A stretch of DNA of 64,000 bases from an uncultured Candidatus Saccharibacteria bacterium. Lineage in GTDB: Bacteria > Patescibacteriota > Minisyncoccia > UBA6257 > Colwellbacteraceae. Location of the stretch: NCBI GenBank assembly GCA_964643135.1, contig CAZXPC010000002.1:73049-137048 (forward strand). Direction: 5' to 3'. A model generated the notes under the pieces. That model was not told the DNA's origin and did not search any database. It was given only the letters and a program-made list of their open reading frames with translations. The translations under genes were made by a program, and so were the position numbers. Below, piece by piece: positions 11,132 to 13,008 of the stretch (position 1 is the first letter of the stretch; the number at the start of each line of letters is the position of its first letter).

Positions 11132-11476
11132 ATGGAGAATCCAATTGATCAACCGCATACCGATCCGCTTGAAGACGCCAGAAAAGTGGCTAAAAATGCA
11201 CGTGAATCAATTAATGCAGAATTGCTCAAAGCCCTGAATCAAACTTGGCTTGAGTGTTTTAGCTCGGTCGCCACAGCCTTGGGGAATTACCTCAGCATAG
11301 CTAAGAAGAAGAACCTGGTGGACGAGAGAGAATATTCCCTTTGGGAGAGCCGGTTCGAGGGTGTTTTAAGCAAGATTAGACAATATAAGCAAGAATACGA
11401 TGCCGAAAGGAAGGTGATGCCAGAAGAATTGAAAGAAGAACTATTGGCTGACATTGATATTTTTAGAGAGGAGTAG
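11132..11476 (+). CDS. Hypothetical protein
   Basis: 114-aa ORF starting one nucleotide after tRNA-Thr(UGU). Confidence 0.3.
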   Translation: MENPIDQPHTDPLEDARKVAKNARESINAELLKALNQTWLECFSSVATALGNYLSIAKKKNLVDEREYSLWESRFEGVLSKIRQYKQEYDAERKVMPEELKEELLADIDIFREE

Positions 11477-11548
11477 CCTCTATTGGTTGATTAAGATATG
11501 CACTTGGAGTAGCTTGACCAACGATTTCCCATATCTTATAATAGTGGT

Positions 11549-12154
11549 GTGTCCAACTCCCTTTCAGAATCAGAATTGAAAAGACTTTATTTGGATAAGA
11601 AATATTCTTCTGCGAAAATAGCAAAGCTATTTAATTGTTCGATCCACAAAGTAAATTATTGGCTTTTAGCGTATGCGATTCCCAAGAGATCTATTTCGGA
11701 CGCTATTTATGCCAAGCATAATCCTAATGGAGATCCTTTCAAATTCAGTCCACCGAAGAGTATTGAGGATGCTAAACTATTCGGTTTAGGGATTGGCCTG
11801 TATTGGGGAGAGGGGACTAAGGCGAATCAGAATTCAATACGATTGGGCAATACAGATCCCTATTTGATTGAGAAATTTATCGAATTCTTGGTTAGATTTT
11901 TTAATATTCGGAGAGAGGACATGACTTTCGGGTTGCAACTATTTACTGATATAGATCCCAAAAAGGCTCTGGACTTTTGGGCAAAACACCTTAGAATAAA
12001 TAAACATCAGTTCAATAAGCCAGTTGTTACGATATCTGGTTCAATCGGAACCTACCGAAGAAAAAACGAATTCGGAGTTCTCACGGCCATGTATCATAAT
12101 AAAAAGCTCAGAGACTTGATGATTAGTTTGATTGCAGAATATAAGCCAATGTAG
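11549..12154 (+). CDS. LAGLIDADG-type homing-endonuclease-like protein (single motif, N-terminal HTH)
   Basis: Motif LFGLGIGLYWGEGTK matches the LAGLIDADG pattern. The N-terminus has an HTH-like segment. The stop codon overlaps the 5' end of the intron-bearing tRNA gene. Confidence 0.45.
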   Translation: MSNSLSESELKRLYLDKKYSSAKIAKLFNCSIHKVNYWLLAYAIPKRSISDAIYAKHNPNGDPFKFSPPKSIEDAKLFGLGIGLYWGEGTKANQNSIRLGNTDPYLIEKFIEFLVRFFNIRREDMTFGLQLFTDIDPKKALDFWAKHLRINKHQFNKPVVTISGSIGTYRRKNEFGVLTAMYHNKKLRDLMISLIAEYKPM

Positions 12155-12410
12155 CTCAGTCGGTAGAGCAACTCCATGGTGGCTCGCGTAGAAATACAGA
12201 AGCCTGCCCACTAGATCGGTAACGGTTTAGTGAATCCCGAATAACGGTTAATAGCCTGATTAGGGCCAAGACCGTGGCGCAGATAGCTGCGCCCGAACGA
12301 CTGACAAGGGAATCCGATAAAATCGGATTAAGATACAGTCTAGCCCTCATATAACCAAGTTGAGGTGTAAGCGAAGGAGTAGGTCGTCGGTTCAATTCCG
12401 ACCATTGGCT
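12145..12410 (+). tRNA. tRNA-Thr(GGU) interrupted by a ~193-nt group I-like intron between positions 36 and 37
   Basis: 5' exon 12145-12180: GCCAATG-TA-GCTC-AGTCGGTA-GAGC-A-ACTCC-ATGGT. 3' exon 12374-12410: AA-GGAGT-AGGTC-GTCGG-TTCAATT-CCGAC-CATTGGC-T. The last exon nucleotide is U and the last intron nucleotide is G, as group I splicing requires. Confidence 0.6.
12181..12373 (+). ncRNA. Candidate small group I intron in the tRNA-Thr anticodon loop
   Basis: Contains AAGATACAGTCTAGCC (compare group I S element AAGAUAUAGUCC), an upstream GACTGACAAGG (R-like, P7 pairing GACUG/CAGUC) and ACTAGATCGG. Terminal G present. Confidence 0.5.
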
Positions 12411-12603
12411 CATAAATAAAATTGCTCAACTTTATGTTGGGCGATTTTATTTCTATGACATTGTGGTCGAATTGAACGGGAAGGGGGTCGGGAAAACGGT
12501 AGTTTTCCCGTAGCGGAAGGCTTGAAACCGCTGGGTTTCAAAGCGCAAGCCGATGTATATCGACTGAGCAGTGAAATAGCGAAGCGTCCGACCATTGGCT
12601 CAG
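12411..12603 (+). repeat. tRNA-flanking element, copy 1
   Basis: Opens with an inverted degenerate copy of the tRNA 3' arm (ATTGTGGTCGAATTGAACGG), then a conserved core GGGAAGGGGGTCGGGAAAACGGTAGTTTTCCCGTAGCGGAA…AAACCGCTGGGTTT, and ends with a direct copy of the tRNA 3' end lacking the T-loop (AGCGAAGCGTCCGACCATTGGCTCA). Confidence 0.5.
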
Positions 12604-12670
12604 GAATTGTCTGTGAACTTGCCATTTTTACGGTAATCATTTAATATACCCACTATCTAAATTAAACGTT

Positions 12671-12841
12671 ATGGGAAAGAAATTATCGGAAAACCTAATA
12701 AGACTGCGTTGCGCGACCTGCAAGCGTATTAACTATTACACTCGTAAGAACAAGAAGACCGTGGAGAAGAAGCTTGACTACAAGAAATTCTGTAACTGGT
12801 GCCGCCTTCACACGACTCACAAGGAAATTAAAGTTAAATAA
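12671..12841 (+). CDS. rpmG: 50S ribosomal protein L33 (56 aa; absent from the ORF track)
   Basis: MGKKLSENLIRLRCATCKRINYYTRKNKKTVEKKLDYKKFCNWCRLHTTHKEIKVK, with the Cys4 zinc ribbon of L33. Confidence 0.8.
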   Translation: MGKKLSENLIRLRCATCKRINYYTRKNKKTVEKKLDYKKFCNWCRLHTTHKEIKVK

Positions 12842-12848
12842 CGTTCGC

Positions 12849-12962
12849 CTCCGAAATCCGATCTACCCTTCAGGGCACAGGATAAATTTGGGGCTCAAAT
12901 TTTCCTTTCCGCTCGCCTACCCGGCTCCGCGAATCCCTTCAGAATAGATCCGGATTTCTCGG
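12849..12962 (+). repeat. Long imperfect hairpin closed by CTCCGAAATCCGATCTA / TAGATCCGGATTTCTCGG with a T-rich tail; member of a GAAATCCGA-stem family
   Basis: 17-18 nt inverted repeat enclosing ~80 nt, followed by GGATTTTTTGATTTG. A homologous closing stem occurs at 56207..56379. Confidence 0.5.
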
Positions 12963-13008
12963 CTGTGCTTCAGTGGATTTTTTGATTTGTTTGAAGTAAG
13001 ATAGGGCT

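Follow-up and report, generated by a model that had tools for sequence, protein, structure and literature searches.

The locus lies in a 64,000-nt stretch of DNA from a tiny CPR/Patescibacteria bacterium (hereafter ‘the window’; its contig is represented in runs SRR8931233 and SRR8931234) and comprises a tRNA-Thr(GGU) gene split by a 193-nt insert and, directly upstream, an open reading frame (ORF) encoding 201 aa; the features of both are collected in Table 1. The two genes overlap, in that the last 10 nt of the ORF are tRNA nucleotides 1–10 and its stop codon, TAG (12152–12154), coincides with U8-A9-G10, an overlap which the original prediction for this region had anticipated and which recurs, with the stop codon at tRNA nucleotides 8–10, in 50/80 genome loci. 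The start given in that prediction, 11132, lies too far upstream, as the span also takes in an unrelated 114-aa orphan ORF (11132–11476); this was considered as part of the cassette and rejected, having no homologue in any related locus.

Table 1. Features of the split tRNA-Thr(GGU) locus and its upstream ORF. Positions are those of the window; ‘x/46’ refers to the alignment of 46 related introns.
Feature	Position	Strand	Remarks
Sigma-70-like promoter TTGACC-17-TATAAT (predicted)	11514–11542	+	11/12 consensus matches; ends 6 nt before ORF start codon
201-aa ORF, N-terminal HTH and LAGLIDADG-fold domain, motif LFGLGIGLYWGEG, invariant E88	11549–12154	+	Probable free-standing homing endonuclease
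tRNA-Thr(GGU) 5′ exon	12145–12180	+	Nucleotides 1–36, last = U36
Group I intron, ORF-less, 193 nt	12181–12373	+	Between tRNA positions 36 and 37
P1	12178–12208	+	Exon GGU and intron GG (12178–12182) with CUGCC (12204–12208)
P1 splice-site wobble	U12180·G12206	+	U·G in 46/46
P1 extension loop	12183–12203	+	
P2 hairpin, GUAA (GNRA) loop	12209–12232	+	8/9 pairs with compensatory changes; GNRA in 44/46
P3 5′ strand CCC	12236–12238	+	Pseudoknot pairing with GGG 12308–12310
P4	12244–12275	+	ACGGUU 12244–12249 with GACCGU 12270–12275; invariant
P5 hairpin, inside P4	12254–12266	+	Covariation in 4/4 pairs
P6 hairpin	12276–12293	+	Covariation in 5/6 pairs
P7 5′ strand GACUG	12299–12303	+	Pairs with CAGUC 12336–12340; invariant 46/46; expected guanosine-binding helix
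P3 3′ strand GGG	12308–12310	+	
P8 hairpin	12311–12329	+	Covariation in 4/4 pairs
J8/7 AAGAUA and P7 3′ strand CAGUC (classical ‘S’ element)	12330–12340	+	Aligns with AAGAUAUAGUC of RF00028-positive intron
P9.0	12343–12372	+	GC 12343–12344 with GC 12371–12372, around P9
P9 hairpin	12345–12365	+	
omegaG, final intron nucleotide	12373	+	G in 46/46
tRNA-Thr(GGU) 3′ exon	12374–12410	+	Nucleotides 37–73, discriminator U, no encoded CCA

Joined, the two exons form a canonical tRNA-Thr(GGU) with a perfect cloverleaf, both exons being intact, and its G1-C72 and C2-G71 pairs and discriminator U recur in the window’s two other tRNA-Thr genes (the Thr set being GGU, represented by the split gene only, UGU and CGU). 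Neither ARAGORN with default settings nor the Rfam tRNA model called anything at 12145–12410. ARAGORN in intron mode located the split gene at this site and sized its insert at 193 nt, setting the boundary at 34/35 and labelling the gene Arg(GCG); we place the boundary at 36/37, as this is the sole position giving an exon-final U and an intron-final G. The call on the joined halves and the intron-mode result uphold the split gene as originally proposed, in exon and intron coordinates as in sequence features, and both terminal nucleotides named in that proposal are borne out at 36/37. The same split gene was present at 48/80 genome loci and on >110 metagenome contigs, a recurrence far beyond chance, and the intron family occurred as one copy per locus and in tRNA-Thr(GGU) only (169/169). 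A hidden or split tRNA-Trp was sought in 12414–12670, near where relatives carry tRNA-Trp, and was not found.

The secondary structure of the insert was derived by comparison of 46 distinct introns. The named structure comprises 11 helices, in which 96.3% of cells were paired, versus 33–44% with slid partners; compensatory change was seen in 32 pairs, and 0/500 shuffles matched any observed measure. RNAalifold, unaided, recovered P1, P2, P4–P9 and the anticodon stem. The helices follow the order P1-P2-P3-P4-P5-P6-P7-P3′-P8-P7′-P9 with the P3/P7 pseudoknot, as in group I introns, and compensatory changes were found in P1, P2, P5, P6, P8, P9 and P9.0, and in the last of these AU replaces GC on both strands together, with 19 and 21 double changes and 100% of cells paired. 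P4 and P7 are invariant and the comparison is neutral on both helices, while for P3, of 3 bp, 97.8% of cells were paired with two double changes, which amounts to weak support. The exon pairs of P1 beside the U·G were G-C in 46/46 introns, and GACTG (12299–12303), AAGATA (12330–12335) and CAGTC (12336–12340) were likewise invariant in 46/46. The conserved core, AAGAUACAGUC and CGACUGACAA, is invariant, with AAGAUAUAGUC and AGACUAGAUAC as its counterparts (‘S’ and ‘R’ elements) in an RF00028-positive intron. A convincing P10, pairing the 3′ exon with the guide sequence, was sought and not found; the exons are presumably aligned without P10 via the anticodon stem. Judged from the comparison of relatives, 12181–12373 is a compact group I intron. 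Covariation, splice-site U·G and terminal G favour the group I reading of the insert first made from this single sequence; the S-like element and the GACUG/CAGUC strands named there are invariant.

In size (~200 nt), in the lack of an ORF and in position (36/37, in the anticodon loop 3′ of the anticodon) the intron is like the IC3 introns of Azoarcus tRNA-Ile and of Agrobacterium and cyanobacterial tRNA-Arg. The IC3 tRNA introns also have, as here, a three-nucleotide exon part of P1, a GNRA L2 and exons held by the anticodon stem. The window intron differs from them in being too divergent for RF00028 and in a P3 of only ~3 bp.

The Rfam group I model (RF00028, Intron_gpI), applied to the window and to 13 relatives at both gathering and E-value thresholds, scored 12.4 bits in the window against a gathering score of 50 bits. 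The best member of the Thr-intron family reached 26.9 bits (E = 2e-4, locus L087), below threshold, and 11/12 further relatives gave no match. L087 also carries a tRNA-Tyr intron that is RF00028-positive at 61.7 bits, with which the core of the Thr intron aligns block by block. Given this positive control and the same failure in the literature (PMC13011429), the RF00028 miss is not counted against group I. The model to which the original prediction had looked for confirmation gave no usable match; the group I structure was shown by comparison of the 46 introns.

Introns of this type have been published. Nakagawa 2026 (mSystems; PMC13011429), citing Castelle 2018 (Nat Rev Microbiol), describes ‘divergent group I introns’ at 36/37 of Patescibacterial tRNA-Thr(GGU), detected by tFind (Williams 2020, bioRxiv), present in 3/95 complete Patescibacteria genomes, missed by RF00028 and miscalled by ARAGORN as Arg(GCG) with the boundary at 34/35. 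Host gene, insertion site, size range, RF00028 failure and ARAGORN miscall are all the same as in the window intron, which almost certainly belongs to the same family; the intron itself is therefore not new. In the published tree the Patescibacterial Thr introns group with subgroup IA, not IC; the published assays, which showed splicing in vitro, were on the Asn and Asp introns from that phylum, and the survey takes most tRNA introns to be hardly mobile for want of endonuclease genes (PMC13011429). It lists three genomes with the Thr intron and mentions no flanking ORF, and the portion examined gives neither structure nor covariation for the Thr introns.

The ORF is a probable homing endonuclease gene, its activity being predicted from sequence features. 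The fold of its product agrees with the LAGLIDADG core (alpha-beta-beta-alpha-beta-beta-alpha), in which the motif helix forms the dimer interface. GLYWGEG is an invariant motif, and its E88 is present in 25/25 members and retained in the paralogues (LYWGEGA/T, IYHCEG); from its position in the motif, E88 is likely to be the equivalent of the catalytic Asp, a metal ligand. Pfam LAGLIDADG_3 gave E = 0.14 for the window protein and at best 0.0063 in 9/25 members, below the cut-off, and no significant match was found by hhalign against I-CreI, by Foldseek against the PDB or by PDB sequence search. The single-motif LAGLIDADG enzymes I-CreI, I-CeuI, I-MsoI and I-Vdi141I, as well as WhiA, are without significant sequence similarity to the ORF product, the HTH of which is N-terminal rather than C-terminal as in WhiA, and its gene lies outside any intron or intein. 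Extended -10-like boxes occur 5–10 nt upstream of the start codon in many homologous loci, and the predicted promoter of the window probably functions as such. Of the two options raised by the original prediction for this ORF, a free-standing homing endonuclease appears the better fit.

Homologues of the ORF numbered >1090, with 55–70% identity, all in CPR bacteria. The ORF is patchily distributed, a search of 185,579 species genomes giving 296 matches; a larger figure for the superfamily from a representative search (7260 matches, E <= 1e-3) was inflated by HTH-only repeat proteins and was not used. Virtually all full C-terminal matches (114/115) adjoin tRNA-Thr(GGU), which was split in 80 cases and intact in 29, the remainder being contig-end cuts or ARAGORN misses, and paralogues adjoin intron-less tRNA-Trp, Tyr, Thr(UGU) and Met genes. 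An Azambacteria locus carries an ORF 64–66% identical to that of the window, a higher figure than the 46% for ribosomal protein S2 and 57% for L33 in this pair of genomes. Some ORF/tRNA junctions show duplicated tRNA 5′ ends; along with the patchiness, the decayed copies and the identity above that of ribosomal proteins, these would be indirect signs of cleavage and of gene conversion into empty sites. This family of tRNA-abutting probable homing endonucleases is large and, apparently, undescribed.

An ORF-less intron and a probable free-standing endonuclease gene lie side by side in one locus, and this pairing recurs. In a sample anchored on the intron, the ORF was intact in 35 cases, truncated by a contig end in two more, fragmentary or frameshifted in 11 and absent from 50 loci, so that the ORF, intact or decayed, accompanies about half of intron-bearing tRNA-Thr alleles. 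A sample anchored on the ORF had the intron in 48/79 alleles, against 3/95 complete Patescibacteria genomes in PMC13011429. That half of the intron-bearing alleles are ORF-less, and 31/79 ORF-bearing alleles intron-less, indicates that neither element needs the other. Two alleles, L017 and L076, have the ORF and no intron with exon sequence identical to that of intron-bearing alleles, which argues against cutting at the intron insertion site; the other ORF-bearing, intron-less alleles mostly differ in the anticodon stem. Uniform exon context (GAGCAACTCCATGGT|AAGGAGTAGGTC in 36/46 genome alleles) was set aside as evidence of co-conversion, as the metagenome shows many stems.

The explanation that we favour, with a probability of roughly 0.72, is that two separate selfish elements share one essential gene: an ORF-less intron and an adjacent, free-standing homing endonuclease gene. 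In the precursor, P1 arises from pairing of the anticodon GGU with the internal guide GCC and places the U·G wobble at the splice site, while the core around P7 is built by the P3-P8 and P4-P6 domains. By analogy with the rest of the family, free guanosine would cut after U36; and P9.0 would bring G12373 into the same site, the exons held by the anticodon stem then being ligated. The ORF would be expressed from its own promoter directly upstream, reading running into the tRNA as far as the stop formed by nucleotides 8–10. Its single-motif product, presumably a homodimer with an extra N-terminal HTH, would cut tRNA-Thr(GGU) loci lacking the ORF, and repair would then copy the ORF into the cut locus. 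At a distance of only 36 bp the intron would be co-converted, which would explain the frequent joint occurrence, and intact, decaying and absent ORF copies beside introns would follow from the usual life cycle of homing endonuclease genes.

A stricter partnership, in which the ORF product would cut the intron-less anticodon arm at or near 36/37 and thereby mobilise the intron in trans, the intron protecting the host gene, is possible, if doubtful. Enzymes of the I-CreI type, with a single LAGLIDADG motif, are homodimers acting on pseudo-palindromic sites; such a site would be expected here too, and the anticodon arm (ACTCC-ATGGTAA-GGAGT) is pseudo-palindromic. The joint enrichment of ORF and intron (48/79 ORF-bearing alleles against ~3% of complete genomes), their closeness and the differing anticodon stems of most ORF-bearing, intron-less alleles also speak for it; L017 and L076 do not, nor do the paralogues at other, intron-less tRNA genes, where the family works without introns, nor the many different anticodon stems within which the intron sits in the metagenome sample. 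Such collaborative homing has precedents in the free-standing F-CphI with the ORF-less psbA intron of cyanophage S-PM2 and in T4 mobE with the defunct I-TevIII intron (PMC3984707, PMC6083498, PMC2790892), pairs that co-occur, as here, far above expectation. Those, however, involve phage protein-coding genes and Endo VII-like or HNH enzymes, whereas the present pair involves a cellular bacterium, a tRNA gene and a putative LAGLIDADG fold, and, unlike in the F-CphI and mobE model, cutting at the intron site is partly contradicted by L017 and L076.

Two further readings would deny the locus an active pair of selfish elements. The ORF might encode a domesticated, LAGLIDADG-derived DNA or RNA binder, either a WhiA-like regulator of a tRNA operon or a maturase aiding intron folding, and this we regard as improbable. 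WhiA has lost the catalytic residues, whereas E88 in the GEG of the ORF product is invariant; a binder of either kind fits poorly with the patchy distribution, with fragments and frameshifted copies that persist before intron-bearing tRNAs and with a between-genome similarity exceeding that of ribosomal proteins, and a maturase does not fit the 29–31 intron-less ORF alleles or the paralogues at intron-less tRNAs. That the gene is instead a disrupted tRNA pseudogene, its insert a dead relic never removed, would accord with the negative RF00028 result and is very improbable: the exons are intact, the cloverleaf is perfect, the gene is the sole GGU isoacceptor in the window, and >160 loci in many CPR lineages have kept the insert, seven of its helices showing compensatory changes. 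Conservation to this degree requires selection on RNA structure.

The favoured reading of two separate elements could form part of a wider scheme, which is speculative and which we would not expect to hold in full: HTH-LAGLIDADG homing endonucleases of CPR bacteria would form a superfamily specialised on tRNA genes, with subfamilies for Thr-GGU, Trp, Tyr, Thr-UGU and Met, each of which would insert precisely where its tRNA begins and take its stop codon from the universally conserved U8-A9-G10, such that RNase P processing of the co-transcript would remove the stop and limit nuclease expression, and with the Thr-GGU subfamily mobilising the tRNA-Thr intron in trans. Free-standing endonuclease genes between phage tRNA genes, T4 SegB and T5 F-Tfl, promote inheritance of the adjacent tRNA region. 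These are GIY-YIG or HNH enzymes of phages and, to our knowledge, neither overlaps a tRNA with its reading frame nor has an associated intron.

Taken alone, the intron adds nothing new; it adds one more case, its secondary structure well supported, to a published type misannotated by standard tools, and both the Arg(GCG) miscall of ARAGORN and the misses by Rfam and default tRNA finders affect completeness estimates for CPR genomes. Surveys of tRNA introns do not look where the endonuclease-like gene is placed, 36 bp beyond the intron, and the same protein superfamily adjoins several other tRNA genes in extremely reduced genomes. Were mobilisation in trans to prove true, it would overturn the published inference (PMC13011429) that Patescibacterial tRNA introns, lacking endonuclease genes, are nearly immobile, and no earlier collaborative-homing pair would have come from a cellular genome or from a tRNA gene. 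Should nuclease activity be confirmed, the locus would offer a natural system for studying how free-standing endonucleases and ORF-less introns join, and how selfish elements exploit tRNA genes, as well as a possible source of new compact sequence-specific nucleases.

Downstream, a 190-nt element trailing the tRNA was considered as a second group I intron, in the T-loop, and rejected: no boundaries with exon-U and intron-G can be drawn for it, and of the copies of the tRNA 3′ end the tRNA-proximal one is, in most loci, the match to the acceptor stem.

Joining the two exons of the split tRNA-Thr(GGU) gene gives the complete cloverleaf of the original prediction, and the result is a textbook tRNA. 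With ARAGORN at its defaults and with the Rfam tRNA model, the window showed four or five ordinary tRNAs and none at 12145-12410; ARAGORN's intron mode recovered the split gene at this place, with 193 nt inserted, under the name Arg(GCG) and with the boundary at 34/35. Repeated bases permit three boundaries, and only at 36/37 does the exon end in U and the insert in G. G1-C72, C2-G71 and discriminator U are common to the split gene and the window's two other tRNA-Thr genes.

At its threshold the Rfam group I model (Intron_gpI, RF00028) did not report the insert; a permissive search gave 12.4 bits (E = 1.9) over 12266-12362. Because of this miss, relatives were gathered: 80 genome loci via the neighbouring 201-aa ORF, 48 of them interrupted at the same point of the tRNA by a homologous insert (165-229 nt), and at least 120 metagenome contigs via a pattern built from the intron core. 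An alignment of 46 distinct introns (A2), each with 12-nt exon flanks, alternates invariant blocks with variable hairpins. Unaided, RNAalifold recovered from it the anticodon stem, P1, P2, P4, P5, P6, P7, P8 and P9; the P3 pseudoknot and the 2-bp P9.0 were placed by eye. Standard pairs fill 96.3% of cells across the full structure, compared with only 33-44% when partners were slid by 1-3 columns, compensatory changes occur at 32/54 pairs, and 0/500 shuffles attained any observed measure.

Diagnostic features of group I introns accompany this covariation. In P1 the guide GCC pairs with exon GGU, and the splice-site U·G is invariant. The insert ends in the G that group I splicing needs in 46/46 introns, and P9.0, immediately 5′ of it, occurs as GC/GC, AU/AU, GU/AC and AC/GU with zero broken pairs. 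The proposed P7 (GACUG/CAGUC) was found, with J8/7 (AAGAUA) just before its 3′ strand, and L2 is a GNRA tetraloop in 44/46 introns. P3, seen only as CCC/GGG with two double changes, is the weak point of the structure; P4 and P7 never vary, so the comparison is silent on both helices. The comparative evidence identifies the insert in the anticodon loop as a true, compact group I intron that the Rfam model cannot see. Covariation in the insert across >160 loci all but rules out a disrupted tRNA pseudogene.

One related locus, L087, provides an internal control, one tRNA cluster there holding both a tRNA-Tyr(GUA) interrupted at 35/36 by a canonical group I intron of 212 nt and an intron of the Thr family. 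With RF00028 the Tyr intron scores 61.7 bits and the Thr intron 26.9 bits (E = 2e-4), and their cores align block by block; 12 other loci gave nothing, or 17 bits. The Tyr intron agrees with the 35/36 type of Nakagawa et al.

An intron in tRNA-Thr of a CPR-like genome was expected to be a notable new find, an expectation that does not hold: introns of this type are already published. In Nakagawa et al. (mSystems 2026, PMC13011429), three complete Patescibacteria genomes are listed with an intron at 36/37 of tRNA-Thr(GGU); the introns are termed “divergent group I introns”, following Castelle et al. 2018, and are stated to go undetected by RF00028. The tFind model (Williams) does pick them up. 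The splicing assays of the study concern Asn and Asp introns, not Thr. For its Thr introns the study displays the ARAGORN miscall Arg(GCG) 34/35, the identical artefact to that obtained here.

The ORF goes with the tRNA rather than with the intron. Its TAG stop codon, as predicted, overlaps the tRNA 5′ end, at nucleotides 8-10, and the stop lies exactly there in 50/80 genome loci, where the protein ends ...L-P-x and the Pro codon is C2-C3-N4; five further loci read through in another frame, to tRNA position 21. A family profile run over all collected loci (1.2 Mb total) gave 115 strong matches reaching the C-terminus, 109 of them followed within 150 nt by tRNA-Thr(GGU) (80 split, 29 intact). 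Of the remaining matches, five are truncated at a contig end or lie at a tRNA missed by ARAGORN, and the sixth is inverted. The ORF stands before an intron-less tRNA-Thr(GGU) in all Peribacteria loci and in many Saccharibacteria-labelled ones. In a few loci (L014, L053 and L042) the ORF finishes in a pseudo version of the tRNA 5′ end, GCCnnnnTAG, with the real tRNA 14-53 nt further on, which suggests that the cassette carries its own copy of ten tRNA-5′ nucleotides. Distant paralogues (25-32% identity) retain the HTH + LYWGEG architecture and lie directly 5′ of intron-less tRNA-Trp(CCA) (n = 8), tRNA-Tyr(GUA) (n = 3), tRNA-Thr(UGU) (n = 2) and tRNA-Met(CAU) (n = 1).

Coordinates of features in the window and in collected related loci (L numbers)
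Feature	Locus	Positions	Strand	Remark
114-aa ORF	window	11132-11476		begins directly after tRNA-Thr(UGU)
Putative promoter	window	11514-11542		TTGACC-17-TATAAT, against ORF start codon
201-aa ORF	window	11549-12154	+	
Split tRNA-Thr(GGU)	window	12145-12180 and 12374-12410		
Terminator-like hairpin and inverted tRNA copy	window	12414-12480		perfect hairpin, 3′ of tRNA-Thr(GGU), then the inverted copy
Inverted tRNA copy	window	12456-12480		partial; T-arm and 3′ end
tRNA-trailing element	window	12453-12602	+	
tRNA-trailing element	window	55026-54900	-	
tRNA-trailing element	L034	1499-1640 and 3403-3530		
tRNA-trailing element	L025	3359-3500		
tRNA-trailing element	L051, L035, L123, L144, L158/L166, L181, L191, others			
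tRNA-Thr, ORF-linked, with intron	L025	3079-3500		
tRNA-Tyr(GUA) with intron	L087	2141-2435		
Trp paralogue	L034	4045-4710		overlaps its tRNA by 10 nt, as 201-aa ORF does
Further paralogues	L113, L139, L142, L105, L119			
Further paralogues	L015, L070, L068, L180, L200, L209, L202, L107			

Fold and motif support the description of the protein as an N-terminal HTH plus one LAGLIDADG domain; significant sequence similarity does not: Pfam matches to HTH_7, HTH_23 and LAGLIDADG_3 (E = 0.14) are all sub-threshold, and over 25 family members HTH_23 was matched in 18 and LAGLIDADG_3 in 9 (best E 0.0063). The family, annotated hypothetical, comprises >1090 proteins of 55-70% identity, exclusively from CPR lineages, with an invariant GLGxGLYWGEG motif. 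Resolvase-type and sigma-type HTH domains match the N-terminus. Boxes like the -10 of the putative promoter precede the ORF in relatives' loci. The feature as originally drawn, from 11132, also takes in the 114-aa ORF, for which about 200 related loci yielded no homologue and Pfam no match; it is an orphan, or not a gene. Several proteins of 350-820 aa (P0129, P0135, P0140, P0151 and others) carry the family's HTH module (profile positions ~5-55) in tandem, with 5 to 14 matches; on these matches they are HTH-repeat arrays, and they inflate the superfamily match count.

ORF and intron are strongly associated, each also occurring alone. The intron is present in 48 ORF-anchored alleles (absent in 31, 1 cut), against 3/95 complete genomes in PMC13011429. 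Among 120 intron-anchored metagenome loci, counted where upstream sequence was sufficient, the ORF was full-length in 35 (plus 2 cut by a contig end), a C-terminal fragment or frameshifted copy in 11, and absent in 50. Its distribution is patchy (296 matches among 185,579 species genomes), and the window and an Azambacteria genome share 64-66% identity in the ORF, against 46% in S2 and 57% in L33. The mix of intact, decaying and absent copies, the patchiness and the ORF identity all fit the predicted life cycle of a homing endonuclease gene, as circumstantial evidence.

From the split gene, the intron secondary structure, the fold and fixed position of the ORF and the population pattern, all of them shown here, a mechanism can be proposed. 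The ORF product would be a free-standing LAGLIDADG homing endonuclease, expressed from its own promoter, that cuts ORF-less tRNA-Thr(GGU) loci; the ORF would be copied in by repair, and the intron, 36 bp away, carried along. Self-splicing of the intron would follow the standard two-step guanosine pathway, and the anticodon stem would keep the exons together. More speculatively, since the ORF stop codon sits within the tRNA, a co-transcript cut by RNase P would become a non-stop message.

Such an enzyme may cut either at the intron insertion site, which would make this true collaborative homing with precedents in F-CphI/psbA and mobE/I-TevIII (PMC3984707), or at the ORF junction. A homodimeric enzyme would be well served by the pseudo-palindromic anticodon arm, but two loci with the ORF and without the intron (L017 and L076) have an exon sequence identical to that of intron-bearing alleles, and the paralogues operate at intron-less tRNAs. 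Less likely, the product is a maturase or a WhiA-like binding protein that has been domesticated; an invariant acidic residue, decayed ORF copies, patchy distribution and intron-less alleles speak against this. The searchable literature yielded no description of a tRNA-abutting HTH-LAGLIDADG family or of its linkage to an “ORF-less” intron; both the family, kin to known free-standing homing endonucleases and collaborative homing, and its tight, non-obligatory intron linkage appear undescribed there.

Some tRNA genes (Thr-GGU, Thr-UGU, Thr-CGU, Trp, Tyr and Gln) are also trailed, at a distance of 20-60 nt and always on the tRNA's strand, by a structured element of ~95 nt, of which nhmmer located 25 copies across the 1.2 Mb of CPR loci. 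It matched no Rfam family, contains no ORF, and has two covarying hairpins; its joints GGAAAGGGGGUCGG and CCGUGGCGGAAG are conserved. A near-perfect repeat of the same tRNA's last ~16 nt lies 2-30 nt past it, in the window TCCGACCATTGGCTCA at 12397 and 12587. The element could be a scaffold-plus-guide RNA, or a miniature integrative element that attaches at the tRNA 3′ end. In the L025 tRNA-Thr, the 5′ acceptor strand GCCGATG has three mismatches with the 3′ strand CTGAGGC and none with the duplicate 3′ end past the element (CCGGCCATCGGCTCA); this could reflect a chimera made by recombination or conversion, a foreign 3′ end carried by the element, or a fault of the assembly. In most related loci Trp lies 200-1500 nt beyond tRNA-Thr(GGU), unlike the window, where tRNA-Trp(CCA) is absent between tRNA-Thr(GGU) and rpmG and after rpmG (12411-13008). 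Past the window's terminator-like hairpin (AAATAAAATTGCTCAAC...GTTGGGCGATTTTATTT), the inverted copy can pair with the 3′ half of the tRNA itself, as a long hairpin.
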